64,000 nucleotides of DNA from an uncultured archaeon (GCA_963810275.1 CAWENF010000004.1:1-64000), one strand, 5' to 3'; counted from the stretch's first letter, positions 1,000-62,545 are shown. Program-made: numbers and translations. Notes: generated by a model from the sequence alone, not told the origin.

Positions 1000-1039
1000 G
1001 TCAAGAAACTTTGACACGGCTTAGTCAAGGAACTTGTAC
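1000..1039 (+). promoter_or_regulatory. Tandem GTCAA-N6-TTGAC sites upstream of a TATA box
   Basis: GTCAAGAAACTTTGAC (1000-1015) and GTCAAGGAACTTGTAC (1024-1039), then TTATAT at 1048 and ATG at 1079. Confidence 0.65.
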
Positions 1040-1078
1040 AATTAACGTTATATCACTTCTATACTCCTATAACTAAAC

Positions 1079-1573
1079 ATGGGTAGAATCGGCAAACCGT
1101 TGGCATTGATGCTTGTTCTATTGTTCATTCTATCCTTGGTTACGTTTCAGCCCTTAACCGTTAAAGCCGAAAAAACAATAGTTGTTCCCCAAGATTATCC
1201 CACAATCCAATCAGCAATAGGTAACGCAAGCTCGGGCCATACAATCTATATCAAAAGCGGAACATACTATGAAAGCCAACTCAACATTACAAAATCAATT
1301 AAAATTATTGGAGAAGATGCAAAAAATACATCAATCATAAACATTGACAAGCTCGGGTGGGAACCTACTCTTAGCCCCTTTCCGCCACCCGCCCCCAAGG
1401 TAATTCAAATCACGGCAGACAACGTAAAGATTTCAGGCGTAATGGCACAGCTAGACGCTAACGTTCCCAAGCCCGTTAAAAACGTGATACCGCTAATTAT
1501 AGAGGCATCCAAAACAGCACTAGTCCAATCAAACTTGCCCTGCTTATCTCTATGCCCCCGCATACTGAGATGA
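1079..1573 (+). pseudogene. Truncated secreted parallel beta-helix (NosD/pectin-lyase-like) protein
   Basis: Signal peptide followed by IVVPQDYPTIQSAI..IYIKSGTYYE..ITADNVKISG. Family similarity stops at about 1440. Confidence 0.7.
1405..1563 (-). pseudogene. Fragment of a small hydrophobic protein, possibly from a mobile element
   Basis: MRGHRDKQGKFDWTSAVLDASIISGITFLTGLGTLA abuts the truncation point of the + strand gene. Confidence 0.35.
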
Positions 1574-1823
1574 ATCTTGCAGACGAATTTGTCATAGTTC
1601 GTTTTGAGCATTACTGTATCAAACAATCACTTCTTAAGGGGTGTCAATATAACCGTTAACATGTAACAGGAGTATGCCTAAAGAACCGTTGATAAGATAA
1701 TTTGGTTCTTGACATAGAAGCTGTTAAATTATTGGAAGAAAAGACAAGGTAGGTCTTATCGATTTATTTCAACGCTTGATGTCGGGAAAAAGCGGTGTTT
1801 GTTTTGGGTAAATTTTAGGACAA

Positions 1824-2039
1824 TTACTGATACTTTCGCTTTTTTAACGCGAAATCAATAATAAAAACAATTAACAAAATAGCTCCAACAACGATTAGTC
1901 CTACCCAAATATAGGTTACCATGCTGCTGCTTAAACGATTGAAATCTCTGAATTTACTAACTAAACTAATAACAATTCCAGTAAGAAGAAGAATAATGCC
2001 AATTCTGCCAATAATCGTTCCATACCTCAAATTTTTCAC
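1824..2039 (-). CDS. Small two-TM membrane protein
   Basis: Two hydrophobic segments and a basic C-terminus. Confidence 0.6.
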   Translation of the reverse strand: MKNLRYGTIIGRIGIILLLTGIVISLVSKFRDFNRLSSSMVTYIWVGLIVVGAILLIVFIIDFALKKRKYQ

Positions 2040-2134
2040 CCACTAGATATCCGTCTGTCGCTATATCTTTAAATACTTAATGTAAAGCGAGACAAAGCGG
2101 CGTACGTTCGTTATTTCAAGTCACATACGTATAA

Positions 2135-2374
2135 TCAAGCATGCCCCTTTGGTGTCCGGCGTCGATGCGACCAAACGTGACGAAACGGAACCTTCAAAAC
2201 TTCGCCTTTTCTAACCCAGCGCTTCTGTGTCACGCCCACTCGAACCTGGCGTTTTCCATCTGAATATGCGCTGGTATGCAGAAAAGTGGTTTTCGCCCGA
2301 ACCTCCACTAACCCATCCTGAACGTCAGAGAGGACCTCCACAGGATAAATGCCCTTAAGGTAAAACTCAGTCAT
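2135..2374 (-). CDS. Hypothetical protein
   Basis: 79-aa ORF with an SD-like GGAG upstream. Family not recognised. Confidence 0.5.
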   Translation of the reverse strand: MTEFYLKGIYPVEVLSDVQDGLVEVRAKTTFLHTSAYSDGKRQVRVGVTQKRWVRKGEVLKVPFRHVWSHRRRTPKGHA

Positions 2375-2494
2375 GGAGTTTTCTCCTGCAGAGCTTCAGC
2401 CGTAAATAAGTCAAAATTACTTAGAATTGACGAAAATCTGCTTAAACATAAAAAGAAAGGGAAAAATGACGGTATAAATGAACGTAAATATGAG

Positions 2495-2569
2495 CGGGTC
2501 CGACGGGAATTGAACCCGCGACCCTCGGATTAAAAGTCCGATGCTCTAGCCTGACTGAGCTACGGACCC
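2495..2569 (-). tRNA. tRNA-Lys (anticodon UUU), intronless
   Basis: Reverse complement GGGTCCGTAGCTCAGTCAGGCTAGAGCATCGGACTTTTAATCCGAGGGTCGCGGGTTCAATTCCCGTCGGACCCG folds as a cloverleaf. CCA is not encoded. Confidence 0.97.
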
Positions 2570-2659
2570 GCCTTGTCTGTTGCGCTGATAGGAAACAACA
2601 ATGGGGTTTTTTAGTGTTTCGATTTTAAAATTGGAAAAGGGAAAAGTTTTGTGGGTTTT

Positions 2660-3037
2660 TTAGACTCGAAAAATTGTTTCCATAAGGATTTTGATTCTAT
2701 CGTGATTGTTTAGGATTGTTTGGATTGTTTTTCTACCTTTTTGAGTAAGCTTATAGACTCTTTTACGTTCCACCCAGGCGCCTTCGACAAGGTGGTTGCG
2801 TTCAAGCGAGTAGAGCAGTGAGTAAACGGTTCCAGAACTTACTAAGAAGCCGAATTTGTTGTGGATGTAGCTGATTACTTCGTAGCCGCTTATGGGGTCG
2901 TGTTGGAGTTTAGCCATGATTATTGTGTCTAGGAAGCTTTTAATGACTCTTTCATGCGTTTTTTTGATTATTCTGCCTTCTGATTTTTCTCCGTTTACGG
3001 TTATGGTTAATGCAACCACTTTTACGCGCCTAGTCAT
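2660..3037 (-). CDS. PadR family transcriptional regulator
   Basis: ISGYEVISYIHNKFGFLVSSGTVYSLLYSLERNHLVEG..RKRVYKLTQKG. Confidence 0.9.
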   Translation of the reverse strand: MTRRVKVVALTITVNGEKSEGRIIKKTHERVIKSFLDTIIMAKLQHDPISGYEVISYIHNKFGFLVSSGTVYSLLYSLERNHLVEGAWVERKRVYKLTQKGRKTIQTILNNHDRIKILMETIFRV

Positions 3038-3423
3038 TCTTATTATTGTTTATATATATTAAAATTGTTATAATAAATAATAAAAAGTTATAACTAAACC
3101 CAAAAATGTGGGTGGAATCGAGCCACTTTTCCTTCTCTCAAACGCCTCAATTTCTGAAAAACCACCTCGAACCGGTTGCATTAAACAGCCATAAAACCTC
3201 TGTAGCTTTTGTGGAGAATTGACATAAAAATGCGGCAAAAAAGTTCATGTGAACTTGAAAAGTTATCTGCTTCATATAGATAAACCTACACTTGGATGCG
3301 CTGTTTTGATTTGCACATTGCTATTTTTTTAACTCTAAACCCAGTTTTAATACTCGCCGATATATGTGCATGTTAACAAACGTTATCACTAATACTGTGC
3401 TACACACACAGCGGTGCTAAATA

Positions 3424-5071
3424 TTGATTTCATGGAAATACACGTTTAAGCGTTTAAATGAAGAATACGAAATCGCCACAAAAAAGAAGCAGGCTTTAGA
3501 TAACCTTTGCGCCAGCGGCAAAATATCTGAAGCCACCCGCGACTCGTTCACAGCTGACATTGTAAAAGCAATTGCAGAAATTGAACAACAACGCCATGAT
3601 CTTGGAGAAAAAATGCAGGCGAAAACCGCTGAACTTGAAGGGCAAATTAAAACTCTTGAAATGCTTTTGGCTAATTATGAAATTCAGCATGTAGTGGGCG
3701 AAATCGATGAGGAAATCTATAACAGAGAAATTGATCTTCTCGGAAGTACCCTTGAAAACACTCGAAACGAATTAGGTGTAGTCAAAGAAGCAGCAAGTCA
3801 ACTTGGTGTTCCCAAAGCAGTGGAAGCCCCCGCTCCAGCTATTGTTGTACCTGAAACAGCCGCCATAGTTGATTCTGCGTCAGTTGAATCAGTTCCCGTG
3901 GAAGTTCCGGTTGAAACTGCCACAATCGAATCCGCAGTCGTGGAAACAGTCACAGCCGAACCTACATCTGTTGAAACCGTGTCAATTGAGGCTCCGATCG
4001 AGAATGTTGTGGCTGAAGCCGAGTTAACAGAACCTGTTTTGGTGGAAGCAGCAGTTGAGGAAGCTCCTTTAGTTGAAGGTGCCTCTGAAGTGGTAATCGT
4101 TGAAGAAGCCGCTCCAGTTGAAACCCCCGTTGAAGAAGCTCCTACAGTCGAAGAATCAGCTCCCATAATTGAGCAAGCTGCACTAGTCGAAGAAGCCCCT
4201 GCAGTTGAGGAAACCTGCCAAGTCATTGAGACTTCAGCAATTGAGCCCACAATTGAAGAAACACCCATAATTGAGGAAGCTCCAGCTGTCGAGGTTGCCG
4301 AAGTTGAAAACTCAATCGAAGCTCCAATTGAAGAAGCCTCTGTAGAAGCTGCAATCATCGAAGAAACCCCAATGGTTGAGGAAGTTCCTGCAATAGAGGA
4401 AGCAGCCCCAGAAGTTGAAGAAGCCCCAGAGGTTGCCGTTGAGGAGACTCAGGTTGAAATCGTTGCTGAACCCGAAGAATTTGTCGCTGAAGTAGCCGTT
4501 GATGAATCATCTATCGAAATCCCAATGGAAGATGCCCCAGTTGAGGAAGCTGTTTCAGTTGTTGAGGAGCCTACAGTTGAGGTCGCCGCCGAAGAACCCA
4601 TTACCATCGAAGAAAACTTTGCCGAAGAAGCCCCTGCAGTTGAGGAAACCTGCCAAGTCATTGAGACTTCAGCAATTGAGCAAGCCAGCAATAGTGGAAG
4701 CTCCAGTTGAAGATGTCACAAATGAAGAAGCACTTTCTATTGACTATGCCCCTGTTGAGGAAGCAACCGAAGAAACCATCGAAGAAGCCCCAGCTGAAAT
4801 CTCCGAGCCCGAAGATGAAGAACCCGCAACTTCAGTTCCTCTTCAAAACTTTGAAGTCACCGAGCACTCCGCATCGGAAATCACCCTTGACAAAGCCATG
4901 GACCCAGTCGTGGAAGAAAATGTTTATCCACCTGTCATTGTGGGGGAGGACCACATAACGGCCCACCCTTCAGAAGCGCCCCAAGAGGCGCCTTCGGAAG
5001 TAGAAGCGGAAAACACCGCAGACCAAACCACCCCAACCGAAGAAAACGACGAAAACACCACAACTGAGTAA
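3424..5071 (+). CDS. CdvA-like coiled-coil protein with a long acidic E/A/P/V low-complexity tail (one frameshift near 4688)
   Basis: N-terminal ~125 aa coiled coil (LANYEIQHVVGEIDEEIYNREI). ORFs 3424-4710 and 4499-5071 join after removing one base. Confidence 0.7.
4188..4681 (+). repeat. 59-bp exact direct repeat (4188-4246 and 4623-4681)
   Basis: cgaagaagcccctgcagttgaggaaacctgccaagtcattgagacttcagcaattgagc occurs twice and encodes EEAPAVEETCQVIETSAIE. Confidence 0.9.
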
Positions 5072-5620
5072 GCTAATTTTTAGCTTCTCTTCTTTTTGTG
5101 TCTTATTTGTTTTAGTTTTATTGCGCTGCTTTTCTGTTGTTTTGTTTTTATATGGGTGGGTTTTTCTTTGGCGCCACAATGAGGTTTGTGTTTTGCGTTG
5201 CTTTTTTCGGGTTTACAGCGGCTCTTTGCACTGTGCGATGACGAGATTTTCTTTCACATTCCAACATACTTCTACGTTAAAATCGACGCCAGTGGAGCTG
5301 GCATCATGTATCGACTGCTTTTTTCTAACCAAGAATTTCACTAAAAGCAATCTATAGCTCAATTCAGTCCCGACCATAACATGGCTTATTCAGGCAAAGT
5401 TGTGCCGTATCTCGCTTATAAAAGAACCAAAACTGCCCCTATAAGCAATCTTCAAAAAAACAAAAAAAAAGAATGCTTTTTTCATAGCAAGAAAAATTAA
5501 AAAAACCCTCAAACATTTTCCAATACCAATCTACTGCTACTGACTACATGACAAAAAAATGCTACATAAAAAGTCCTTTTCATACTCAACATTTTAATTA
5601 TTCCACACCGATTCACTATC

Positions 5621-5869
5621 ATGCAACTAGCAGAAGTCGCCATCCTAATGAGAGAAATCGTGGACAGATGCCCTGGTCTAGACGGCGCCACCTTCACGCT
5701 ACTACCTCAAAAAGCCAAACCAACATACAGGGGATACAGCATAACCATCAAAGGAGTATTTTCCAGAGAAGACATCAGTGGCTTAAGGAAAATAGTTGAG
5801 GGGCACGACTTAGTTATGGACATCAAAACCGATTATGTAGTGGTTTACGAGACTAGAGGGTTCCGATAG
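5621..5869 (+). CDS. Hypothetical protein
   Basis: 82-aa ORF with globular composition and a TATA-like element upstream. Confidence 0.6.
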   Translation: MQLAEVAILMREIVDRCPGLDGATFTLLPQKAKPTYRGYSITIKGVFSREDISGLRKIVEGHDLVMDIKTDYVVVYETRGFR

Positions 5870-5994
5870 TTCTCTTCTATCAGAAGACCCTTAATAGTTG
5901 TTAAGCAATTATTACGTGAGGATGATTTATCTTTAGTCCAAAAAAACGAGCACCAAGAAACGCCAAAAACCGAGGCAAATCCGGAACTTACCCA

Positions 5995-6180
5995 ATGAAA
6001 ATCGGGGAAGAATACGAAGTAACAATTTTCGAAGTAGCCTCAAACGGTGAAGGCGTCGGGAAAATCAAAAACTACCCCGTCTTTGTAAGAAACGCTAAAC
6101 TCAACGAGCAGGTTAAAGTAAGGATAACTAACTTAGTTGCCGGATTCGTCGACGCAGAAATAGTCTCTTCTAACCCTTAA
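5995..6180 (+). CDS. Single TRAM-domain protein (RNA chaperone type)
   Basis: IGEEYEVTI..GEGVGKIKNYPVFVRNAKLNEQVKVRIT. Confidence 0.85.
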   Translation: MKIGEEYEVTIFEVASNGEGVGKIKNYPVFVRNAKLNEQVKVRITNLVAGFVDAEIVSSNP

Positions 6181-6329
6181 AAATATTCTAAACAATGACC
6201 TGTTTCGTATTGGGTTTTCTAATTTTATTTCTTGATGAACTTAATGTTTGATTGCTTTACCATACTCCTTGCCCTTGTGAACGCTCAATTGCTTAACTAA
6301 AAAAAGAAAAAAGATAAGAGGAGTTTGGT

Positions 6330-7941
6330 TTAGTAATCCAAGATTTTTTTAACAGCGTCGTTTTCCACTTCGTTAGCCAACGCTATACCTGTCACTTGCT
6401 GGGCAAGGATGCTTAAACTCATAAGGTCCCCTCTGTTCAGCAAGTTAAGGTTCCATTTGCGGTTGCCAGCCATTAACTGTTTCAAACCAACGCCAATCCT
6501 GTCTGTTAAATAGGTGTAGACGCCGATACTTTCCAGCGGAATCTCGCTGAATTGTTCACCATATTTAGCTTTAAGCTCCGGTGCTGCAATGAAGAATTTT
6601 TCTGGAGTTTCTCCGAATTTTGCTGCAAACTGGCGCGGCAATTTTCCATCAGCTGCAAGCCGTTTGAAGTATGCTGCTTTCATTGCTGCCGTGATTGGTG
6701 AGCGACCCATCAGAACAGCTTTAACCAGTGGACCGTTTCCAAAGTTGCTTAAAGCGATGGTTTTAAAGATGCTTGTTTCTTCAATGAAACCGCCTGCCAT
6801 AATCAAGTCAGGAACGTGTTTTCCTTTGCTTTTAAGTATCTGTGCACATTGCAGTACTAATGCTTGCAAGTATACTGTTGGGATACTCATTTCATCCATC
6901 ATGGGAACTGGACTCATGCCTGTTCCGCCGCCTGCTCCGTCAAAACTTAACGCGTCGATTTTTGCTTCAGAGGCAAATTTCATTGTGTATGCGACAGCTG
7001 AGGGGCGGTACGCGCCGGTTTTTAGGAAAACCTTTTTTGCACCTTGTTTACGTAGCCACTCAATGTCTTCTATGAAGGATTTTTCTTTTGGTATGCCGAC
7101 TCTACTGTGACGTTCAAAGGTGTGGAATACGCCGTCGCGGAAACGCTTGCTGTATTACTGGGTCTTCGGGGTCGGGGATTACTATGTAGCCACGTTTTTT
7201 GAGTAGAATGGCTTTCTGAAGGTCTTTGAGGCGAACTTCTCCGCCTATGGCTTTGGCTCCTTGCCCCCACTTGCGCTCTATGACGTTTACTTCTAGCTTT
7301 GATAGAGCATAAGTATCTATGCCAAGTCGTTGGTCTTCGACATTTGTCTGTACGATAACCTCCCCATTTTTTTTATCCCAGAACTTTCTAAAACAGTCAA
7401 TTCTTCGTTTAAGCTCTGGTGAATGGGTTAGTTTTTCATTTGTACATGATGCTTCAACATCCATACCTGCAATGTTTTCACCTATAATGATTGATACGCC
7501 GGCAAGTGCTGCTCCAACCGCTAATCCTTCCCAGTTTACGCGCGCTACTTCTGTTGAGCCGAAAGCGCCTGTTAGGATTGGGAGTTTATGCGGAACACCG
7601 CCCACAACTGTTTCTGTGTTTGCATTTGGAAATATGGCATCTTCAGAGGTTTCCGGTATTCCTTGGGCTTCTAAGAGGCCTGCTTGTATGTTGAAATGGG
7701 ACCAGTCTAACCCGAAGTCTTTGAGGGCTCCTGCGGTGCTTGTTCCGAATTGTTCTGGTTCTGGGTAGAGGGCTTCTCTGCCTCTGAATGCGGATAGGCT
7801 GATTTCGCAGAGTACTGGGCAATCGTGTATGCAGATTGGGCACATGCCGCTTAGAGTGCTTGTGTCTTTGACTCGCGTGTTTGTTCCTACGGTTGATTTC
7901 CCGTTTAGGTATGAACTATTTTTTTGTGTTCTTTCACTCAT
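6330..7941 (-). CDS. FMN-binding glutamate synthase family protein (one frameshift near 7139)
   Basis: SGMCPICIHDCPVLCE, ERKWGQGAKAIGGE, LKTGAYRP and DGAGGGTGMSP motifs. The two ORFs join after removing one base. Confidence 0.85.
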
Positions 7942-7982
7942 TTTTTTCCCAACTTTTTTTGTTAACGCTTAGTCATGGGTAT

Positions 7983-8056
7983 TACTAAGTATGACATTCC
8001 ATGTACGTGGTATGAATTATTTAACTTTTGTCAGATAACATGCTACCTAGTAGCAT
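7983..8056. promoter_or_regulatory. Three TAC-N3-GTA palindromes in a divergent promoter (putative RHH operator)
   Basis: TACTAAGTA at 7983, TACGTGGTA at 8004, ATGCTACCTAGTAGCAT at 8040-8056. Confidence 0.55.
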
Positions 8057-8101
8057 AAACATTTAAGTGTCATCTTTAGCGATATGTTAAACTGACTGCT
8101 A

Positions 8102-8281
8102 ATGAAAAAGAAGAAAATAGCAATCAGCATCGACCAAGGACTCTATGACTGGCTCAAAACTGAAGTAGATTCTGAAGAACGCACTTTCGCGTCAATGAGC
8201 CACGCAATCGAATACTGCATCGCCTACCTAAGAAAAGACAAAGATTTTGAACTTCTCAATAAAGCTAAAAAACACTCATAA
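8102..8281 (+). CDS. Ribbon-helix-helix (CopG/Arc-like) regulator, 59 aa, not in ORF track
   Basis: MKKKKIAISIDQGLYDWLKTEVDSEERTFASMSHAIEYCIAYLRKDKDFELLNKAKKHS*. Confidence 0.8.
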   Translation: MKKKKIAISIDQGLYDWLKTEVDSEERTFASMSHAIEYCIAYLRKDKDFELLNKAKKHS

Positions 8282-8372
8282 ACCACCAAAATTTCTCTTA
8301 TCAACAATTAATCTTAAGCGTCCACAAAATAGTTGACCCACCTTTAATTAAAAAATAAAAAATTTGGGAAGA

Positions 8373-9119: not shown

Positions 9120-9129
9120 AAAATTTCAC

Positions 9130-11601: not shown

Positions 11602-11883
11602 TATCCTTGGTATATGTTTGCTTTTAGCAAGACTATGATAGAACCTAAAAACGTTATCCTGACTTGGAATATTGGTGAGTGGGGTTTTTGGAGTTTTTGG
11701 CTTGTATTTTTATTTTTATGTTTTTTTGGGCAACTCCTATAAGCAACCATGAATATATTAGTATATTATGATGTGTCTGAGTGGAGATTAAAACAGTAAA
11801 CAACTGTTTCACAATCGTTTCACCCAACTAACATATCACTCCACGAGTAGTATATACATACACAAAAAAGTGAGGTTAAAAAA

Positions 11884-14114: not shown

Positions 14115-14633
14115 TTGTTTACAGAGAAGCAAATGACCGCATATTCACCAACAAAACAAGGCAACCGAACAAAGAAAGCGGCTTTTCCTTCCCCAAAAAT
14201 CTTATTCGCCATTATTGTGGTTCTTGTGTTGGCGGTTGCCGTTATAGCTTGGCAAGCCCCCGCCATATCCAAGTTCTTTGAAGACACAGGCAACTCCGAA
14301 TACACCACACTCAGTCTATTCGCAGGTGTCTCCCAAACCTACCATAACGGAGTAGACTTCTACACGTTTAGCTACAAACTCTCAGCAAGCGACACCACTG
14401 AATTGTTCTATGTGACGCGAAACGCAGAGGCATCTCGCTCTTACCCCGCCGTTGCAGGTGCTGTTTTCTCGGATTTAGGCGTAGAAATGAAGGTTTCCTC
14501 GGTCACGTCAGAACTGTTGGTTCTACTGGTTAAGCCTCTTCCCGAACTTAAGCGCTCGGGCGCAAAACCTATATTCTTTAAATTTGCCTTTCTATTTTTC
14601 AGTTCTTGGGGAGCTGGGAAACGACCCTGCTGA
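14115..14633 (+). CDS. Membrane-anchored hypothetical protein (true stop likely near 14550)
   Basis: N-terminal TM helix and beta-rich domain. The annotated tail runs into the riboswitch promoter, suggesting a frameshift. Confidence 0.6.
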   Translation: MFTEKQMTAYSPTKQGNRTKKAAFPSPKILFAIIVVLVLAVAVIAWQAPAISKFFEDTGNSEYTTLSLFAGVSQTYHNGVDFYTFSYKLSASDTTELFYVTRNAEASRSYPAVAGAVFSDLGVEMKVSSVTSELLVLLVKPLPELKRSGAKPIFFKFAFLFFSSWGAGKRPC

Positions 14634-14693
14634 GAGGACAGTACCTTCTGTCGACCCTGCGAACCTGAACCAGGTAATACTGGCGGAGGGAAA
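14603..14693 (+). ncRNA. TPP riboswitch
   Basis: GGGGAGC..GCTGAGAG-GACAG/CTGTC-GACCC..GAACCTGAA-CCAG GTAATA CTGG-CGGAGGGA contains all canonical THI-box elements and sits upstream of thiT. Confidence 0.93.
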
Positions 14694-14700
14694 AAACCAA

Positions 14701-15266
14701 GTGCAAACTAAAAAATATCAAACCCATAAACCCAACCGACTAAACTAGTTTTTTGAACCCCCTTTTAGAAACCCAAGAATCTTGGCTGAAATGGCAATCT
14801 TCACCGCGTTGGCCACAACATTAAGCTATAATTGTTTATCATGTAATGCCTCAAGGTGGCTCAATCACATTCGCTTCAATGGTTCCAATCATTTGGTTGG
14901 CGCTGCGAAGAGGCCCAAAAGTCGGAGTTACTCGCGGTGCTCTATGGATGCATCCAGTTCATAATTTTGCCCTATGCCATTGCTCCATTGCAGAGTGTTG
15001 TTGGATTACCTGTTGGCGTTTGGTGTCTTGGGGTTAGCTGGTTTTTTCCGAAAATACCCTGTCTCGGCGCCGCAGTAGCTGTATGCAAGTTTTGTCCTGA
15101 GCTTCATTTCAGGTGCGTCAACTGGGCGCCAATATATGCTCCAGACATTGACCCCTACATTTACTCCTCAGTTTACAACGGAAGCTACATGGTGCCTGAA
15201 CTTATCATAACCGTATTCGTAGTCTTCCTGCTTCAGGCAAGTAAAGCGTTGAGGGCTTATCTTTAA
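14701..15266 (+). CDS. thiT: Energy-coupled thiamine transporter ThiT (several frameshifts)
   Basis: ILAEMAIFTALA, MPQGGSITFASMVPI, LLDYLLAFGVLGLAG and YSSVYNGSYMVPE are spread across frames. Confidence 0.85.
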
Positions 15267-23123: not shown

Positions 23124-23294
23124 TCAAAGGAAACTGCGTTGGTAGCAGTCTTCATGCCGAATTGCGATGCATTTTCGGGTTGCTACTTGTTGTCCTTCAC
23201 AGATGGGTTTGTGACAGATGGGGCAGACAAGGTTGCCTTTCTTTTGAATTCGAATTAGATGCCGATGAGTTAGTACATAATGGTTTAGTGCCAT
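23124..23294 (-). CDS. Small LIM-like zinc-finger protein, 56 aa, not in ORF track
   Basis: MALNHYVLTHRHLIRIQKKGNLVCPICHKPICEGQQVATRKCIAIRHEDCYQRSFL* has CxxC..HxxC, with BRE/TATA upstream. Confidence 0.7.
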   Translation of the reverse strand: MALNHYVLTHRHLIRIQKKGNLVCPICHKPICEGQQVATRKCIAIRHEDCYQRSFL

Positions 23295-23341
23295 ATTCAC
23301 TCACATGAACCCATGGTTTTTCTACGGTTAAAACGGTTTTT

Positions 23342-23445
23342 ATCAAGGGTTCTGGACTAAGGGTTGGTCTAATTTCCTTGACTAACTAAAAACAAACCTG
23401 AACTTACCATGCTGAGATGTTTTTTGCTTGTCAAGATTTCTTGAC
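23342..23445 (-). promoter_or_regulatory. GTCAA-N6-TTGAC site cluster (one pair plus a single site)
   Basis: Sites at 23342-23357, 23367-23382 (25-bp period) and 23430-23445 (GTCAAGATTTCTTGAC). Confidence 0.65.
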
Positions 23446-54416: not shown

Positions 54417-54475
54417 CTGGGTTTGTGCGATAAGGATTTTAAGGTTTCAACCCGTTTACTGTTAAGGAACCTTTC

Positions 54476-55201
54476 ATGTCCATCAAAGTTGTCCTCTTCG
54501 ACATGTTCGATACACTTATGCTTATTGAGAAAGACCACGAATTTTACCAGCCTGCTCTTCAACGCGCCCACCACTACCTACAAAACCATGGTGTGACAGT
54601 GGCTTACGAGCGGTTCCAAGCAGTATACATAGAGGAGCGAGACAAGCTCTATGCCCAAGCGGACGCCAAACTTGAGGAACCCCACTTTAACGTCCGCTTC
54701 GCCAAAACGCTACAGAAACTCGGCTACAACTATGACGACCAAGACCCTGTTGTGGCTGCGGCGACTTGCGAGTTCGGCGATGAATTCAGCAAATACGTTA
54801 AAATAGACGAGAACGCAGCTGCCACGCTCGAGGTGCTTAGCGGCAAGTTCCGGCTGGGTTTAGTCTCAAACTTTGCCATCCCCGAAACTGTAGATAAACT
54901 CCTAAAAGTCGCCGGCATCTACCGCTACTTTGATGTCCTTGTGGTTTCGGGGGCAGTTAACAAACGCAAACCCCACCCCCGAATATTCCAAGCTGCTCTT
55001 GAACCCTTGGGTGTTGAGGCGGCAGAGGCAGTTTTTGTAGGTGACACTGTGGACGCTGACGTGGAAGGCCCTAAAGCAGTCGGCATGCACGCCATCTACA
55101 TTGAACGTCGAACCCAGAAAATAGAAAAGTCAGTCCCTGACAAAATAATCAAAACGCTTTCAGAGTTGCCTTTGGCAATTAGTAGCTTAACTGAAAATTA
55201 G
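54476..55201 (+). CDS. HAD-superfamily hydrolase
   Basis: FDMFDTL, VSN, KPHPRIF, VGDTVDADV. Confidence 0.92.
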   Translation: MSIKVVLFDMFDTLMLIEKDHEFYQPALQRAHHYLQNHGVTVAYERFQAVYIEERDKLYAQADAKLEEPHFNVRFAKTLQKLGYNYDDQDPVVAAATCEFGDEFSKYVKIDENAAATLEVLSGKFRLGLVSNFAIPETVDKLLKVAGIYRYFDVLVVSGAVNKRKPHPRIFQAALEPLGVEAAEAVFVGDTVDADVEGPKAVGMHAIYIERRTQKIEKSVPDKIIKTLSELPLAISSLTEN

Positions 55202-55530
55202 AATACGCTTGATTTCTTATCTGAGTTTTTCCCTATGAGTTTTAGGAGTTCTCGATGGGTTTGGAGGTAATCCATGCCTTTTTGGGTGATTTCGTATATT
55301 TCTTTGTCGTGGATGACTATTTGGGTGATTAGTTCTTTCTTTATAAGAAAATCGAGGTAACCGTTTAGTAGGGTGTAGCTTAGGTTTGCTTGGTACATGA
55401 TCTGAGTTTTGAGGGCGCCTTTTTTTGAGATTTCAAGCATTTTGGCAATTATGCTTACTTGATCTCTTCTGTGACGTTTTGTATCGAGCAAATCCTGTGT
55501 GCACCGATATATGCCAAATCGTACGGACAT
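55198..55530 (-). CDS. Winged-helix DNA-binding protein (archaeal HTH_45-like)
   Basis: RRDQVSIIAKML..KTQIMYQANLSY..YEITQKG. Confidence 0.88.
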   Translation of the reverse strand: MSVRFGIYRCTQDLLDTKRHRRDQVSIIAKMLEISKKGALKTQIMYQANLSYTLLNGYLDFLIKKELITQIVIHDKEIYEITQKGMDYLQTHRELLKLIGKNSDKKSSVF

Positions 55531-55663
55531 TACTTATATATTTTTCATTAGATATAATATGGCTAAGCAAAAGCATGATCTATTTTTTAATGTGTCTATA
55601 TATAATGGATTTTCCCTGTTCATATTATGAAGAAAACCTTTAGTAATAATAAATGGTGAAAAA

Positions 55664-56161
55664 ATGTTAATTGGCACAGTATCTGACTCACACGACAACC
55701 TTCCCCTTATTGACCGAGCAGTCCAAATTCTAAACATCTACAAAACAGACTTGGTACTACACGCAGGCGACTACGTCTCACCCTTCACAATTTCCCACTT
55801 TGCCAAACTCAACTGCCCCTTAATCGGCGTGTTCGGAAACAACGATGGCGACCACGCATTTTTAAAACAACGCTTCAGCGAAACCAAAAATTGTACGCTA
55901 CATGAACGGTTCACAACCCTAAACGTAGAAGGCTACAAAATCGCTCTGCTGCACGGACACGAAACTGAACTTTTAAACACTATAATCGAAGCAGGAACTT
56001 TCAACGCCGTCGTACATGGTCATAGCCACAACAAAGGCATTTCTCAAGTAGGAAAAACATTGACAGTGAACCCTGGCGAACTTTGTGGGTACCTCACTGG
56101 AAAATCCACTGTTGCAGTGCTGGATACCTCTAGAAACGTAGCCCAAATTGTTGAACTTTAA
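55664..56161 (+). CDS. YfcE/MJ0936-family metallophosphoesterase
   Basis: SDSHDN, HAGD, GNND, HGHSH, NPG. Confidence 0.92.
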   Translation: MLIGTVSDSHDNLPLIDRAVQILNIYKTDLVLHAGDYVSPFTISHFAKLNCPLIGVFGNNDGDHAFLKQRFSETKNCTLHERFTTLNVEGYKIALLHGHETELLNTIIEAGTFNAVVHGHSHNKGISQVGKTLTVNPGELCGYLTGKSTVAVLDTSRNVAQIVEL

Positions 56162-56386
56162 AGCTGTGTTTCTGTAAAGTTTCAGTCACATAGCTTTATG
56201 TAAACAGCATACCCTTACGGACCACAGTAGCATTTGGAGAATGGCTGTTTCGGTTCGAAACCTTGAAAACAAAAAGGCAAAATGACTGTTGAGAAAGCTG
56301 CACACATGAGTGGGCATAAAGTTAATAAGCTTGTTGAAGAAGCAAATCGCACGAACAGGAATGACCCTAAGAAGGTTCTAAATGAT

Positions 56387-56656
56387 TCATGGGTTTTCCC
56401 ACGTCTCGATAAGCGCTACCACGGCTTTGGCCCTAGCTGAGTCGCTGAAGCGGTACATATGTACGCGGCCGTACACCCGCACCTCCAGTATCCCTTCGGT
56501 TTCCAAAATTTTTAGGTGCTCCGCGGTTGCTGAGTAGTTCATATTTATTTTGCTAGCGATTTTTGAAACGTTTAGCTGTTGCAAAGTGTAGATTAACTTA
56601 AGAATTCTCATGCGGGGCTTAGACGAGAAGACCTCTTCAATCTCCACGCCCAGCAC
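56387..56656 (-). CDS. Small winged-helix protein coupled to cdc6
   Basis: FSSKPRMRILKL..LNVSKIA..HLKILETEGIL..GRVHMYRF. Confidence 0.85.
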   Translation of the reverse strand: MLGVEIEEVFSSKPRMRILKLIYTLQQLNVSKIASKINMNYSATAEHLKILETEGILEVRVYGRVHMYRFSDSARAKAVVALIETWENP

Positions 56657-57851
56657 CTTTCTCTCTTTCCAGATTCGCCGCCATTTCCCGCTCCAACTCC
56701 ACAGATGGAATCGTGGGTAAACTAATGCGGTTAGTGCGTCCTCGCGACTCCGAAGCGCCTACTTCAGTTTTTAAAACCCCGAGTTTGTCAAGATACTGTA
56801 CGTAATTCCAGATTTGCGTGTGACTTTTAGTGGACTCCTCAAATTCCTCGCAGACTACACCATAAGCTTTCTCTGCTTCGCCAATGCTGACGTAGGCTTC
56901 AGGGTTCTCTTTAAAGTACCGTGCGATTGCGAGCAGGAATAGTTTTTCGTGGAAACTCAACGAGGCGAGTTCGCTGCGACGCAGTGTGGGGACAATGGCT
57001 GAGACTGCGTTTCGGACGCATTCAGCCGCCACCGCCGATAAGTCGGCTGCATCGGCGTATTTACCCGCTCGCCATAACAACTCGATGCCGAAGCGTGCGT
57101 TGCCCGTCTCCGAGTGTGCCAACTCAGCCACCAAATCTACCACGTCATCGTCTACTGTGCCCAACTCGAACGCTAAAGCGACGCGACAGTTTAGGATATC
57201 AATAAGCTGGGGTTTGCCATAGCGTTCCAACCGGATGATACTTCTTTGCAGTGTACTTTGGGCGCTTTCGTCAAGCTTCCTAATAGCCTCCAAGTTGCGC
57301 ATGATAAAAATGAACGAGAGGCGCTGAGGTTTGCCCTGCCGCATCTCTGACAGCCTCGTCAACTTGTAAACCGCGTCTGAGCCTTCTTTTTCGATTAGGC
57401 TGTCAAACTCGTCCAGCGCAAGAACCATCGTTGCCTCTTCCTCATCAAGCACTTGCATTAGAGTGCCCATGATTTCTTCAGCACCATATCCGCGTGCAGG
57501 GAAGTTTGGGCGAAACACAGAAACCGCTCTATGCATAATGGGCTGCAGGGCGCCGCGAAATTCGCGACAATTAACATGTACATAATTAAATTTTTGTCCT
57601 CTACGTCGAGACTGCGAAGTCAGATCTGCACCGAAATGCTGCGCCAACGCCGTTTTGCCTGTACCAACATCACCCGTCAAAATCACTCGTTGCGCCATAC
57701 GGTCGGGACAATGCAATACGAACCCGAAAAACTCCATTAGAAGACGTTGTTCTTTTTCGCGGTGCGGCAGCTCTGCTGGAATGTAGTTTATGTCCAGTTT
57801 CGATTCATCTTTGAATACAGTTTGGCGCGCTGCCACTTTTATGGTCTCCAT
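56637..57851 (-). CDS. cdc6: Orc1/Cdc6 family AAA+ protein
   Basis: YIPAELPHRE, GDVGTGKT, VNC, LDEFD, GNARFGI, C-terminal WH. Confidence 0.93.
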   Translation of the reverse strand: METIKVAARQTVFKDESKLDINYIPAELPHREKEQRLLMEFFGFVLHCPDRMAQRVILTGDVGTGKTALAQHFGADLTSQSRRRGQKFNYVHVNCREFRGALQPIMHRAVSVFRPNFPARGYGAEEIMGTLMQVLDEEEATMVLALDEFDSLIEKEGSDAVYKLTRLSEMRQGKPQRLSFIFIMRNLEAIRKLDESAQSTLQRSIIRLERYGKPQLIDILNCRVALAFELGTVDDDVVDLVAELAHSETGNARFGIELLWRAGKYADAADLSAVAAECVRNAVSAIVPTLRRSELASLSFHEKLFLLAIARYFKENPEAYVSIGEAEKAYGVVCEEFEESTKSHTQIWNYVQYLDKLGVLKTEVGASESRGRTNRISLPTIPSVELEREMAANLEREKGAGRGD

Positions 57852-58205
57852 GATAGCTGTTGCAGTTTGGTTATTTTACGTTTTGGAATTCAAGAACCTT
57901 TTAGGCTTAGCAACCCCAGATTAAGGTGGGGTGTAACCTTTATAACTGCAACAGCTGAATTGATGAAGCAAACAGGCAAACCCTTTACATGTGATACGGC
58001 TATGTATACGATGTTTGATTGGGTCCCAGAGATTTTGTCGCTTACCCTGAACAATCCAAGCTAAGGTAACGAGTAACCCGCCCCGCAACCCTAATCTACC
58101 ATGTTTTGGTATCTACAAAACGTTTCTAGACCGTCAAATTTGAGTGTGATTTCTAAACAAAACACTAATAAATGAATACTGCAATCCATATTTTCCGACA
58201 CAGCA

Positions 58206-58772
58206 ATGATACCGAAATATTTCTTTTTCACAAAAGGTGTTGGTAAACACAAAGAACAACTCCAATCATTCGAACTCGCACTACGCGACGCAGGCATCCA
58301 GCATTGTAACCTAGTCAGCGTGTCCAGTATCGTGCCTCCAGGCTGCAAACTTGTCACCCGCGAAAAAGGACTAGAAATGATTCACCCAGGCGAAATCACC
58401 TTTGTGGTCATTGCACGTAACGCAACTAACGAACCTCACCGTCTGGTAGCTTCCTCTATCGGCGTAGCTATTCCATCTGGCAAAAACCAGTACGGCTACC
58501 TGTCTGAGCACCACAGCTTTGGACAAACCGACGAAACAGCAGGCGACTACGCTGAAGACCTCGCAGCCACAATGTTAGCCACTACAATGGGCATTCAATT
58601 CGATCCCGAAACAGCATGGGATGAACGCAAAAAAATCTTCAAAACCACCGGTTTAATCATAAAAACCGACAACACCACCCAATCTGCTGCAGGCGACAAG
58701 AATGGACTTTGGACCACCACAGTTGCAGCAGCGGTACTTGTTCCTCCAGAAAACGGAGAAATAAAAGATTAA
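58206..58772 (+). CDS. pdaD: Pyruvoyl-dependent arginine decarboxylase
   Basis: [29 protein letters not shown]. Confidence 0.93.
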
Positions 58773-58789
58773 AAAGAAAAGACAAACTA

Positions 58790-58818
58790 AGCAAGTCTTT
58801 GGGACTTGCTAATTTTCT
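58790..58818 (+). terminator. Hairpin plus T-tract after pdaD
   Basis: AGCAAGTC-tttgg-GACTTGCT followed by aattttct. Confidence 0.5.
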
Positions 58819-59011
58819 CAGCCTTTAATATATCGTTTTCTTGTAGCTGTTTATTCTTTCAAATTCCATACATAAATATGCTGGAAATTCTTTTGACCTA
58901 TGAAAGGTTCCATTGCTCGATGCTTTTACACCGTCTTTTTTGTTTCCTTGGCAGTGAAGCGGGGATTAATACAATCCAAAGATGATACATACAAAATAAC
59001 TGGTATTCTTG

Positions 59012-59797
59012 TTAATTTAAATGGAAGAATGATTCCAATCTTGAGTTTTCGGCTTTCTTCAGTACTTTTGCGCATTCTTTGGGGTTTAAGGCTTTAAACT
59101 CCAGTCCCATCTGTTCTAGTATCCGTTGCACGTCTTTACCTAGCGCTGGCGCCACGAGGACTGCGCGAACCGGCTTTGTGGCTTTCGCTTTAATCGGCTC
59201 AATGTACTTTGCCAATTGGAGGGCTGCTTCTTTAGATGCAGTTCTGCGCTTCACCTCGACGATTACAAGTTTGCCGTTCTTATCTTCGCCGTATATGTCT
59301 ACGAAGCCGGGTTCCACATGCTTCTCCCAGCTAATCGGCTTAAACCCTTCCTCAAGCAGCGACGGCTTAAGCAGAATCGCCCTGTGCATGTCATCTTCAC
59401 TGGCGTGCAACGTAAATTCGCCGCTGTCTTGAAGATTTAGAGCGGTTACTCCAATGATGGTTTTAAATGTGACTTTTACGCTTTCGCGGGGCTTCTGGCG
59501 AACCCCATGAACTTCAAGTGTGCCATCTTTGATTTCTACATGGAACACGCTGCCGCTGGGCTGCCAATTCACCGGTTCATACCCTACAGGGCGATGCACA
59601 AGCAGGCTGCCATCAGATTTCACAATTAGCAGCCGTTCACCATACTCTAACGTCGAGTTTGCCCGACCAGCATAAACCACTCTGCACTCGCCAGCAACCA
59701 CCAGTGTTCTGCGTTGCGCAATCGTTTTTTCGATGTTTACTGCTGCTTCAGCTAACTCGGGATGTGTTAAACATGCAACTTTGTTGCTTACCGCCAA
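59012..59797 (-). CDS. nucS: Endonuclease NucS (EndoMS)
   Basis: YAGRA, KSDGSLLVH, PVNWQP, VDIYGED..IVEVKR, QLAKY; likely TTG start at 59797. Confidence 0.93.
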   Translation of the reverse strand: MAVSNKVACLTHPELAEAAVNIEKTIAQRRTLVVAGECRVVYAGRANSTLEYGERLLIVKSDGSLLVHRPVGYEPVNWQPSGSVFHVEIKDGTLEVHGVRQKPRESVKVTFKTIIGVTALNLQDSGEFTLHASEDDMHRAILLKPSLLEEGFKPISWEKHVEPGFVDIYGEDKNGKLVIVEVKRRTASKEAALQLAKYIEPIKAKATKPVRAVLVAPALGKDVQRILEQMGLEFKALNPKECAKVLKKAENSRLESFFHLN

Positions 59798-59858
59798 ATT
59801 GATGCGCCACCTATTTAGGATGCATTGAGGGTACATAAGATTTCTTGAGGTAAACAAG

Positions 59859-60410
59859 TTGTCGGCTTGGATCCAGAAGCGGGGCGTAATGGAACGTTAC
59901 GACGCAACATCGGAGGGTTACGATGAGCTCTACGGGGCGGAGCAGAAACGAAAATTCCAAAAAGCCTTGGAGCATGCAGATGCGAAAGGCAAGGCGGTTC
60001 TGGACGTGGGGTGTGGCAGCGGCTTGTTCTTCAGTAACGTAGCGGGGCAAGCCCAGTTGGTGGTTGGAGTCGACGTTTCTCGTGGTCTTCTAAAAAAAGC
60101 CAAAATGCATAGTCGTGGCTTTGGCGATGTCGAAGTGATTTTGGCGGATGCTGATCATTTGCCATTCCGAGCTGAGTTTTTCGGCGCAGTTTTTGCTTTT
60201 ACTGTTTTGCAGAATATGCCTAAACCCGAAGAAACATTGAGTGAGTTCAAGCGGGTTTCCTCAGTGGGGCGCCCAGTTGTAGTGACAGGCCTGAAAAAAG
60301 CGTTCGAACTGACAAAATTCATGGACATCCTCGAAACAAGCGGTATGAAGCTTGCAGCGTTTGTAGACGAGGACGCCATTAACTGTTATATCGCAACATT
60401 AACCGCTTAA
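59859..60410 (+). CDS. Class I SAM-dependent methyltransferase
   Basis: YDELY, VLDVGCGSG, ADADHLPF. Confidence 0.9.
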   Translation: MSAWIQKRGVMERYDATSEGYDELYGAEQKRKFQKALEHADAKGKAVLDVGCGSGLFFSNVAGQAQLVVGVDVSRGLLKKAKMHSRGFGDVEVILADADHLPFRAEFFGAVFAFTVLQNMPKPEETLSEFKRVSSVGRPVVVTGLKKAFELTKFMDILETSGMKLAAFVDEDAINCYIATLTA

Positions 60411-61682
60411 CAGCTGTACATCCGCCACTTGGCCTGTATCTGCCCAAACCCCCACAGCTGCCATGTTCAATCCGCCCGTGTAGTTTGTTTCCAAATTCAT
60501 CAAAATATACCAATATGGGACAAGCGCCACCGAGTACCCTCGCGGATGCGGCAGCATCTCAACCGAAACCGTGTCTGCTGCTGTGAAGCCGCTGATTTCC
60601 GTGCCGTTAAGTATCCAAATCAAGGTTTTAAGGTGGTCTTTTGCGATTTGGACGGCTTGGTTTTGCTCGACATTTGCTTCGGTGTTGGCTACTGTGAACA
60701 GAAAGTATCCGTCAGTTACTGCCGATAAGACGCTGTCATCAAATGTCATGCGGAGGCTTTTAGAGTTGAAGTCCACATCTTCTTTGGTGTACATCCATAG
60801 GAATTCTGCAGCAGTGCCTTGCAAGGTGATTTGCAGTTTCAGGTCTCCTGCGGTTACGGTTGTGAGTTCGCCGTCGGTGGCGTTTACCGTGTTAAGGAGG
60901 CTTAGCATTTCGGATAAATATTTGTCTCTGCTGTAGGCAATGTATCTGTCAAGGGCTGCTTTAGCGGCTTCTAACGTGTCACTGGGTGGATTTTCTGTTA
61001 ACTGAGGGCTGGATTGGGCTGCGACAAGCTGGTATCGGCTGAGATGGTTCTCTCTGAAACGCAAACTAACATCCAAATTGCCATATGGGCTTACAAACGA
61101 GTACCTGAGCACCTCTTCGGCTACCTCAAAGTCGCCCCTATACTCCAACGTGTTGCTGAGGAGTGAAATCTTGTACTGGTTAGTATCAAGCAGCACTACG
61201 TCACGCAGCAGGTCGGCGATTTTGCCCGCGCCGATACCCCACGAAAGCAACTGTTGGTTCTCCGCTTCGACTCGTCTCTGTTCCTCACCCATCCTTGCCA
61301 TCTCACTGTACTGGTAGAAACCAAAACTTGACAGCAACAGCACAATAATCATAAGCGCTGCAAAGGCGGCTTTCCATTTGCGTGCCAGCTTTTTAGGGCG
61401 GCGCCTTTCCAATTCAGGCGCTTCCTGCACACCCTTCATGGCCTGCACGGTGGCTCTGCCAAAACTCGACAACATGTATTGCCCAATTTCTGTTTTCGTT
61501 AACAGTTCTCCGAGACTTTCAAGGTGGTATGTTAAGTGGCTACTGGATATTCCGAGTTGCTCAACGATTTCCATAAAAGTCATGGGTTTGTCGTTTAGCA
61601 TGCGTAGGATGCGGCGGCGCACTGGGTGTTTCAGGGATTTGAACATGATGGAGTAGATTTCTTCTTCGTTGCTGTTACCCAT
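60399..61682 (-). CDS. Membrane-anchored regulator: ArsR-like wHTH, one TM and a large extracytoplasmic domain
   Basis: FKSLKHPVRRRILRML..SSHLTYHLESL, TM at about aa 105-123, then about 300 aa. Confidence 0.8.
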   Translation of the reverse strand: MGNSNEEEIYSIMFKSLKHPVRRRILRMLNDKPMTFMEIVEQLGISSSHLTYHLESLGELLTKTEIGQYMLSSFGRATVQAMKGVQEAPELERRRPKKLARKWKAAFAALMIIVLLLSSFGFYQYSEMARMGEEQRRVEAENQQLLSWGIGAGKIADLLRDVVLLDTNQYKISLLSNTLEYRGDFEVAEEVLRYSFVSPYGNLDVSLRFRENHLSRYQLVAAQSSPQLTENPPSDTLEAAKAALDRYIAYSRDKYLSEMLSLLNTVNATDGELTTVTAGDLKLQITLQGTAAEFLWMYTKEDVDFNSKSLRMTFDDSVLSAVTDGYFLFTVANTEANVEQNQAVQIAKDHLKTLIWILNGTEISGFTAADTVSVEMLPHPRGYSVALVPYWYILMNLETNYTGGLNMAAVGVWADTGQVADVQLLSG

Positions 61683-62014
61683 GGCCCGATTCCGTTTTGT
61701 AATATGGAGTTTGGGTGTATAAAATTTGCTAAAGAAACGATGCTTCGAAATCTATGTATTCAGATCCTTCTTGAGCTTTGGGGTAGTTAATTTGAGGTAT
61801 GTAACGCTCTATTGTATGTTAGCATCCGTTTTACGGGCTTTTTGGCGCTTGCTCCCCTGTTTGTTGTCCTTATTGTATTCTGAGGTTTCTGAGGTTTTTG
61901 GGTAGGATTCTGGAAAAGTTTAATATGGGCTAAACGCGAAGGGAACATAAGTCAAGTCCAAGTGACCATTGTGCAATGATTCGGGCTTGACCAAGAAAAT
62001 GGGAGCTGGGGAAA

Positions 62015-62338
62015 ATGAACCTAAAGCTATACGCAATCAAAAACATTAGCTGCCCTCGACTTGAGCAAATTCAGCTTGTAGTAGTTGACCTAGACAAAAG
62101 CAAACATTACCCTCTCAACTTCGTCTGCGTGCTGCCAAGGTACTTCCGGATCTTGGAGAAACGTAGCAGCAAATTTGCCAAGCTATTCGGAGAAAGAAGC
62201 TTGCTAACCGCCAAAAAACTATTGGTGAATGCTCAGTCTGAAGAGGCAGACCCAGAAATCCAAACAGTGATACAACGTCGAATAAAAGACATAGACGCCA
62301 AAAATAACACTGCACCAGCGCAATGTGCAATGCAGTAA
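62015..62338 (+). CDS. Hypothetical protein
   Basis: 107-aa ORF with BRE/TATA at about 61913-61925 and an SD-like GGGAG. Confidence 0.75.
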   Translation: MNLKLYAIKNISCPRLEQIQLVVVDLDKSKHYPLNFVCVLPRYFRILEKRSSKFAKLFGERSLLTAKKLLVNAQSEEADPEIQTVIQRRIKDIDAKNNTAPAQCAMQ

Positions 62339-62504
62339 CCGTTTCTGAAGGTTAGTTTGCCTCTAAATCTTTGGGTTTAGAGGTTACTTCTAATTTTTTG
62401 TTTGAAACAAAATCAGTTAGCTTATTCTCCTGCTTGGCACACGCAACATTAGTTACCGCAAACACCCGCTCACATTAGATACACATACCCGATTCCATCT
62501 GTAT

Positions 62505-62545
62505 GTCAAGAAACGTTGACAAGGGCTAAGTCAAGAAATCTATAC
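62505..62545 (+). promoter_or_regulatory. Tandem GTCAA-N6-TTGAC sites
   Basis: GTCAAGAAACGTTGAC (62505-62520) and GTCAAGAAATCTATAC (62530-62545), then TTTATG at 62554. Confidence 0.6.

Follow-up and report, generated by a model that had tools for sequence, protein, structure and literature searches.

The window analyzed here is a stretch of 64,000 nucleotides (nt) from an uncultured archaeon (GCA_963810275.1, CAWENF010000004.1:1-64000); its own genome (G000) comprises 2.26 Mb in 28 contigs, and its genus is here designated g1. Three loci in the window each carry two copies of a 16-bp palindrome, GTCAAG-N4-CTTGAC (GTCAAGAAAnnTTGAC), called the box below, and a single perfect palindrome lies near one of them. 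The length of the box fits the 13 to 17 bp of inverted repeats of the ArnR-box or upstream activating sequence type, and the proximal box of a pair also occurs with a degenerate right half (TTTAC or TATAC). An earlier note on this DNA had described these sites and proposed that one dimeric factor binds them and activates a genome-wide regulon. The box letters that it gave for sites 1, 2, and 3 and for the single palindrome were read back exactly, and each pair is indeed followed after 8 nt by a TATA-like word (TTATAT, TTTATG, or TTTTAA); the distal and proximal boxes start 24 to 25 nt apart. We call the two boxes with their TATA-like word the module. The features are as follows, with match scores in bits.

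1000-1015, plus strand: site 1 distal box, GTCAAGAAACTTTGAC, 27.0 bits
1024-1039, plus strand: site 1 proximal box, GTCAAGGAACTTGTAC, 16.8 bits, starting 24 nt past the distal box
1048-1053, plus strand: site 1 TATA-like word TTATAT, 8 nt past the proximal box; ATG at 1079, 31 nt from the TATA start
1079-1573, plus strand: site 1 gene, 164 amino acids, signal peptide and start of a beta-helix (NosD/pectate-lyase-like)
23124-23300, minus strand: site 3 gene, 58-amino-acid CxxC...HxxC zinc-finger-like protein; GTG at 23300, 33 nt from the TATA start
23326-23333, minus strand: site 3 TATA-like sequence TTTTAACC (word TTTTAA), 8 nt past the proximal box
23342-23357, minus strand: site 3 proximal box, GTCCAGAACCCTTGAT, 10.8 bits, the weakest box of the earlier note
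23367-23382, minus strand: site 3 distal box, GTCAAGGAAATTAGAC, 18.7 bits
23430-23445, no strand: single perfect palindrome, GTCAAGATTTCTTGAC, 25.5 / 19.6 bits, 63 nt upstream of the site 3 distal box
60399-61682, minus strand: P0001, candidate factor, 427 amino acids, with an ArsR/SmtB-type winged helix at about residues 6 to 86, a membrane helix within residues 101 to 147, and extracytoplasmic tandem PepSY-like domains
62505-62520, plus strand: site 2 distal box, GTCAAGAAACGTTGAC, 24.9 bits
62530-62545, plus strand: site 2 proximal box, GTCAAGAAATCTATAC, 21.4 bits
62554-62559, plus strand: site 2 TATA-like word TTTATG
62583-62663, plus strand: open reading frame (ORF) of 26 amino acids behind site 2, its ATG 53 nt past the start of the proximal box, the canonical distance

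The ATG codons of sites 1 and 2 (1079 and 62583) lie 29 to 31 nt past the TATA start. The site 1 gene is probably truncated; a 289-amino-acid paralogue stands behind a module of identical type on contig C21 (214542), and relatives with MGKIGKT-type protein starts also carry the module, as the site 1 gene does. At site 2, the 26-amino-acid ORF overlaps the 3′ end of a convergent phosphoglycerate-mutase-like gene (62609-63817, minus strand). The module is missing at the equivalent place in 9 of 9 relatives, and synteny with relatives stops just upstream of the P0001 ORF, at site 2. This site looks like an orphaned or decaying promoter at a synteny break, although it may still drive a small protein or an antisense RNA. 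Contigs from three RNA libraries (≥99%) covered parts of 60594-61666, 61979-62251, and 63271-63539 and none of 62412-62679; such contigs carry no start or strand information and could reflect DNA carry-over.

The boxes exceed chance when their full length is considered. The word GTCAAGRAA occurs 8 times in the window versus 1.52 expected, a count reached in 0 of 100 shuffles; six of the eight lie in the sites of the earlier note, and the other two (44124 and 47483) are within ORFs. The minimal pattern GTCAA-N6-TTGAC with at most one mismatch was weakly enriched in the window (7 versus 2.72 expected; 2 of 100 shuffles reached 7) and showed no excess in the whole genome (86 versus 77 to 105 simulated). 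This bare pattern is unconvincing alone; we take the informative unit to be a longer one, GTCAAGAAAnnTTGAC. Perfect palindromes number 16 in the genome versus 1 to 5 across five first-order Markov simulations, and a 14-position consensus was matched at ≥13 positions by 20 genome sites versus 0 to 2 for four control patterns. A position weight matrix trained on relatives only, the scan that the earlier note had suggested, gave 36 oriented matches at ≥16 bits in the genome versus 3 with the reversed matrix. At ≥13 bits it marked 39 regions; about 27 are intergenic, and the 12 inside long ORFs are probably chance matches.

The exact 16-mer was present in 17 of 18 other genomes of the genus, in up to 21 copies each, with no match to the reversed control, and in a first draw it was found in 0 of 12 other genera. 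The tandem form occurs in 34 of the 61 genus genomes scanned, a set that includes G000 (control, 0). Across a survey of 301 genomes of the class, more than one match per genome was seen only in genera g1, g17, g18, g19, g24, and g37: in the window's family, 12/14 genomes of g1, 2/6 of g17, 1/1 of g18, 3/3 of g19, and 1/1 of g24, and in a second family 7/7 of g37, with up to 36 copies. Elsewhere there were only single matches, in 1 of 4 genomes of g7 and in 3 of 224 genomes over 77 further genera. The box is thus patchy in the class, occurring in this genus and five further genera of the order and almost nowhere else.

The consensus of 26 distinct modules from relatives is GTCAAGAAAnTTTGAC-TnnnCTTA-GTCAAGAAnnnTTTAC-nAnAAnnC-TTTTAT. 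Information averages 1.29 bits over the proximal box, 0.72 across the 8-nt gap, and 0.94 over the TATA, against 0.17 to 0.21 in the flanks; this comparison omits the distal box, which the search pattern had fixed. Of the 282 oriented boxes collected over all loci, 106 are followed by a TATA-like word at +4 to +11; in 70 of these the word begins at precisely +8, and in 94 it begins between +7 and +9. The positional enrichment relative to TATA that the earlier note had asked about is thus present, and the boxes hold the fixed position of an upstream module. TATA boxes were assigned from sequence and from how far away the start codon lies; when TATA-like words ahead of crudely called gene starts were profiled over the whole genome, no clear peak emerged. 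The first start codon of an ORF of ≥40 amino acids peaks at 52 to 56 nt from the box start (34 of 90). This places the codon about 28 to 32 nt past the TATA start, the distance that mRNAs with little or no leader would predict.

The distance between the two boxes takes only certain values. Among 59 adjacent pairs of strong boxes in g1, 54 are spaced at 23 to 25 nt, 5 at 32 to 36, none at 43 to 45, and none elsewhere up to 120 nt; part of these pairs were fetched with a pattern limited to 6- to 11-nt spacers, while the cluster and CxxC loci were chosen regardless of spacing. The 35 pairs from other genera are distributed as 2 at 24 to 25 nt, 24 at 34 to 36, 9 at 43 to 45, and none elsewhere up to 120 nt. 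With a wider pattern (6- to 32-nt spacers), all 65 pairs among the matches listed have spacers of 8 to 9, 17 to 20, or 27 to 29 nt. Such steps of one helical turn are predicted by two protein dimers in a fixed rotational register; the palindrome and this 10-bp quantization lend indirect support to the earlier suggestion of a dimeric factor, here probably bound on one face of the DNA.

Orthologous promoters keep the module. The 58-amino-acid CxxC protein of site 3 is present in 8 of 16 g1 genomes searched, and a box pair lies 59 to 100 nt before its gene in 11 of 11 loci from 8 other genomes. In 9 of the 11, AAAAACGC and a TATA of the TTTTA type come next; the remaining two (L098 and L099) have GAAAACGC and ATTTTAC or TTTTAGC instead. 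Sequence further upstream is unrelated and the flanks have diverged, and a weak third box occurs upstream in 2 of the 11. It is solely because the same arrangement is kept in these promoters that we regard the 10.8-bit proximal box of site 3 as credible.

In G000, the module heads about two dozen promoters, and the first ORFs behind it mostly begin with a signal peptide or a membrane helix. By an automatic rule, a signal-peptide-like start was found in 8 of 11 first ORFs versus 552 of 2615 ORFs genome-wide (Fisher P = 3.6e-4); the corresponding figures were 46 of 58 in cluster loci (two in G000, the others in eight further genomes) and 64 of 90 over all relatives. About 70 to 80% of the downstream genes encode signal-peptide proteins. 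The targets are otherwise mutually unrelated and include NosD/pectate-lyase-like beta-helix proteins, PKD/Ig proteins, a 534-amino-acid Fer4_5 polyferredoxin-type membrane protein, and small membrane proteins. Where a genome has large clusters, every successive co-oriented gene in them carries its own module.

The main target family comprises proteins of 250 to 300 amino acids that share a conserved start, IPKPSVPEF, and end in VPEF/VPEL followed by a hydrophobic helix and basic residues. A VPEF, VPEL, or IPEF motif followed by a helix and R/K residues is visible in 5 of 7 aligned members, and the tail looks like a PEF-CTERM sorting signal. NCBIfam models matched 0 of 7 tails of this family, and a strict regular expression for PEF-type tails found only 5 in G000. 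An exosortase/archaeosortase signature is present in the genome (contig C19, 137225-138010; TIGR04178, 51.2 bits versus a cut-off of 23). Archaeosortase C is reported to recognize PEF-CTERM (PMC5244752).

Several further observations concern these target genes. After the module at C3 74355 (minus strand), C17 41875 (plus strand), and C21 220383 (minus strand) of G000 stand near-identical leaders of about 55 nt (GTATTTGTAACATTAACAAG...), each followed by a gene for a small membrane protein, MxLTKxYRxLSLLSISLFAIAIIGGYITLSQA. On contig C21 (217346-219999; L041), neighboring beta-helix ORFs of 268, 272, and 332 amino acids resemble pieces of longer genes; they and the window ORF at 1079-1573 may be pseudogenes or assembly errors in surface-protein clusters. 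In members of the genus with hardly any boxes (L243, L244, L250 of G196, and L257 of G016), a different element, AAATCTGCTnTTT ... TTTAATTGTT ... GCTTTTAT, recurs 60 to 110 nt before the start codon in promoters of this same surface-protein family, which suggests that the family has been rewired there to a different factor.

Taken together, the sequence comparisons make it very probable that a regulon bound by a specific factor exists. The best explanation as a whole, to which we assign a probability of about 0.6, is that a single dimeric, sequence-specific transcription factor binds the boxes; it is presumably an activator, and the P0001 family is the candidate for it. The overall interpretation of the earlier note, one factor with a genome-wide regulon, is supported: background frequency, loose spacing to TATA, and lack of conservation were all tested, and none was found.

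Seven candidate factors were compared with the distribution of the motif over the same 61 genomes or a 5-genome subset, and P0001 was the one that tracks the motif at the genus level. Its amino-terminal part is of the ArsR/SmtB type, with Pfam scores of 35.9 bits for HTH_5 (cut-off, 22) and 35.6 bits for HTH_20 (cut-off, 27) and sequence matches in the PDB to 1y0u and 6j0e. A structure model (mean pLDDT confidence, 82.4) shows a winged helix, one long helix (residues 101 to 147) holding a hydrophobic stretch, and beta-rich outer domains. Foldseek matched the first ~90 residues to SmtB, HlyU, CzrA, CadC, and YodB (TM-score on target, 0.64 to 0.75) and the outer region to 5boi, the C-terminal domain of YpeB (E = 2.3e-8), and 3nqy_A, a chain of vibriolysin (E = 1.6e-4), which we take to be PepSY folds; the Pfam PepSY model gave no match to P0001 at E values up to 0.1. 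The recognition-helix residues LTYHL..LG are invariant in 22 sequences. Many ORFs of about 360 to 400 amino acids, in these genomes and in the motif-free genus g14, match only residues ~150 to 427; the outer PepSY-like sensor domain may be combined with other N-terminal domains.

Among the matches listed, full-length relatives of P0001 (E < 1e-90, or a contig-edge piece in G232) were found in every one of the 24 motif-rich genomes and in each of the 6 motif-bearing genera; the 23 other genera gave none, their matches being limited to separate N- or C-terminal pieces. Relatives also often have boxes in their own promoters. Scanning 600 nt, we found a box of ≥14 bits 70 to 180 nt upstream of the gene in 14 of 75 public-genome loci, versus 3 of 75 downstream and 0 of 75 inside the gene; the chance expectation for such a box is about 0.006 per 350 nt. 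Outside g1, 10 of 19 loci have an upstream box. In a tree built by a quick method, 17 of 82 rows have box-bearing promoters, and these gather in a few clades; 0 of 500 shuffles were equally clustered. Three of four motif-poor g17 genomes carry a box-like GACAAGAAAT(C/A)TTKAC (TTGAC in G217) 123 to 131 nt before the P0001-family gene. A box-like site at this one gene in nearly box-free genomes is expected of a factor with its own operator, not of an ordinary target. One of the 80 closest relatives of P0001 (L208) comes from a record titled as an alphaproteobacterial metagenome-assembled genome yet lies inside the Bathyarchaeia clade of the tree; this bin is probably mislabeled or mixed.

Several results weigh against this explanation or against P0001 as its factor. 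Nine genomes (G047, G016, G006, G018, G196, G153, G217, G229, and G293) have the P0001 family and only 0 or 1 exact boxes, and the two of these that were aligned, G016 and G047, share the same recognition helix. A hidden regulon of variant sites was looked for and rejected in the motif-poor genomes G153, G217, G229, G293, and G016, as their counts of sites with one mismatch (0 to 6) equal those of family-free genomes (0 to 5). The P0001 promoter of the window lacks a box, with no match of ≥9 bits in 61683-62504, and 0 of 18 tree rows of its clade have an upstream box. The main target family has the same genus-level range and within g17 occurs only in the two motif-bearing genomes, so this phyletic pattern is not unique to the regulator; since the genera are related, the association of P0001 with the motif may rest on as few as two independent events. 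Motif-poor g1 genomes keep the main target family with another conserved element in its promoters, and site 2 lacks an evident gene to regulate. Lastly, activation is argued from position, and a box abutting the transcription factor B (TFB) recognition element (BRE) is where a repressor might equally act. We place the chance that the P0001 family (the window ORF and a paralogue on contig C27) reads the boxes slightly below even.

The strongest rival accepts the boxes and assigns them to another protein, outside those compared, with the P0001 family merely a member of the regulon that has the same phyletic range. The shared range of the main target family and the nine almost box-free genomes fit this account, as do the further regulators that carry the module (a double winged-helix protein at 4 loci, a DtxR-like gene, and a Tfx-like gene) and the fact that the seven candidates were drawn from a larger set of regulators. 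The six other candidates fail the presence test, however, and box-like sites persist before the P0001-family gene in three genomes that have almost no other boxes. A different factor is a real possibility, though one that we would not bet on.

The six were rejected as follows. The double winged-helix/Cys protein (contig C26, 49684-50604) is missing in 6 of 7 g37 genomes and present in many motif-free genera; the 58-amino-acid CxxC protein occurs in only half of the g1 genomes searched, as given above, and nowhere else; a 156-amino-acid winged-helix protein (contig C12) occurs in 55 of 61 genomes irrespective of the motif. PadR (window 2660-3037), which the earlier note had put forward as a possible factor, did not track the motif in the 5-genome screen, and neither did HTH_45 (contig C21) and Tfx-like (contig C2) proteins.

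Some regulator genes nevertheless stand behind boxes. In four genomes of the genus (L022, L032, L033, and L039), a 237- to 330-amino-acid paralogue of the double winged-helix protein, with an N-terminal Cys motif and two winged helices, follows a module with a perfectly palindromic proximal box, making it a regulon member at these 4 loci; G000 has only the box-less paralogue on contig C26. A DtxR-like regulator gene follows two boxes 45 nt apart (L132:9244-10112, G157), and a Tfx-like DNA-binding gene follows a single box (L119:13801-14372, G040). Other regulators may thus sit below the box factor in a cascade.

Known systems offer partial parallels to the single-factor explanation. Palindromic sites just upstream of BRE/TATA, sometimes paired as here, mediate activation by Ptr2 of Methanocaldococcus jannaschii and by TrmBL1 at the TGM motif of Thermococcales; those are soluble factors of the Lrp or TrmB family with other motifs and metabolic target genes. 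ArsR/SmtB metalloregulators resemble the first ~90 residues of P0001, as the HTH_5 score and Foldseek matches indicate, but are small and soluble, whereas P0001 continues into a membrane helix and a 280-residue outer region. ToxR and CadC share with P0001 a cytoplasmic DNA-binding domain, one membrane helix, and an outer sensor domain and differ in being bacterial, with an OmpR-type winged helix and sigma-70 promoters.

The closest parallel is ArnR/ArnR1 of Sulfolobus acidocaldarius. As described in two reports, these are membrane-bound helix-turn-helix activators of surface structures, and the archaellin (flaB/arlB) promoter has two ~15-bp inverted repeats, TCGAC-N5-GTCGA, at −43 to −84 upstream of the BRE, both needed for binding (PMC6396743, PMC10117864). 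Paired inverted-repeat boxes upstream of the BRE are common to both systems; the box sequence is different, and the one to three promoters of that system contrast with about 25 to 35 per genome here. ArnR has a HAMP and a sensor domain in the cytoplasm and two C-terminal membrane helices, whereas in P0001 a single membrane helix directly follows the winged helix and leads to an outer, PepSY-like region. Because this domain order is unlike that of ArnR, we compare the two by layout and do not file P0001 in the ArnR family.

If one activator does read the boxes, two dimers would bind in register, the proximal one next to the BRE, which its box would abut by ending 8 nt upstream of TATA, and the second one, two, or three helical-turn steps further upstream (24, 34 to 35, or 44 to 45 nt start to start). 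The factor might then help TFB and the TATA-binding protein onto the adjacent BRE/TATA, as ArnR does at the archaellin promoter. The outer PepSY-like domains of P0001 could sense a cell-envelope signal and couple it to expression of the surface proteome. The analogy with ArnR/ArnR1 is why we favor activation, which we consider probable, over repression.

Under repression, the boxes would be operators at which the proximal dimer, stabilized by the upstream dimer, bars TFB from the BRE until a signal removes it. The proximal box does touch the BRE region, the best candidate has the fold of ArsR/SmtB proteins, which are mostly repressors, and boxes upstream of the candidate's own gene fit negative as well as positive autoregulation. 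Most archaeal repressors, however, act at sites overlapping or following TATA, and no box does either; the second box, 24 to 45 nt further upstream, would be unable to occlude the core promoter. The two ArnR inverted repeats upstream of the BRE (−43 to −84) are reported to activate (PMC6396743). We regard repression as unlikely.

Passive copying of a promoter with an expanding paralogous family, or a mobile repeat without any regulon, is very improbable: several G000 copies do lie in paralogous clusters (C3, 72.9 to 75.1 kb; C21, 212 to 223 kb; C17, 41.9 kb), three have near-identical leaders, and site 2 is an orphan at a rearrangement, but likeness between copies is limited to about 50 to 80 nt with flanks that hold no information, the module stands before unrelated genes (those for beta-helix, PEF-tail, CxxC, and polyferredoxin proteins and for regulators), the boxes persist in orthologous promoters whose surroundings have all diverged, spacing shifts between genera in exact 10-bp steps, and neither a tRNA nor any other integration mark was found beside the C3 cluster, which on the absence of a tRNA was also rejected as an integrated element.

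The single-activator explanation has a stronger and more tentative form, in which a membrane-anchored family of ArsR-type winged-helix, tandem-PepSY-like proteins reads the box directly, autoregulates, and switches on the whole surface proteome, beta-helix proteins as well as archaeosortase-type PEF-tail proteins, of one Bathyarchaeia branch; we think this conceivable but somewhat doubtful. In effect, a one-component system that senses the envelope would keep some two dozen promoters at the membrane, the site from which their products are exported. The system would have been acquired or discarded as one unit, and individual lineages would have changed the distance between the two boxes by full turns of the helix.

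Elements of this kind are already known; the motif, the regulon, the 10-bp re-spacing, and the winged-helix/membrane/PepSY-like candidate appear to be new as far as the literature was searched. Searches of paper listings returned nothing on any of these four and no paper pairing Bathyarchaeia with a TATA box; the titles listed for a Bathyarchaeota regulon were unrelated. Bathyarchaeia are abundant and uncultured, and to our knowledge nothing is known of their transcription control. The present analysis provides a defined cis element, sketches the cell-surface proteome through a regulon of about 25 genes, and names a candidate factor. With a soluble domain of about 95 residues and a 41-bp module, the pairing can be tested without culturing the organism, and the quantized spacing offers a natural experiment on the orientation that two archaeal factor dimers need relative to the basal machinery.

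Three other features of the window were recorded. Directly upstream of site 1, at 518-772 (plus strand), lies a HicB-like antitoxin domain scoring 25.5 bits, under the Pfam cut-off of 27. A tRNA-Lys (TTT) at 2494-2569 (minus strand), called by both Rfam and ARAGORN, adjoins the PadR-family gene at 2660-3037 (minus strand). A thiamine pyrophosphate riboswitch, here in an archaeal genome, is present at 14597-14709 (plus strand), with 63.0 bits versus an Rfam gathering score of 54.3.

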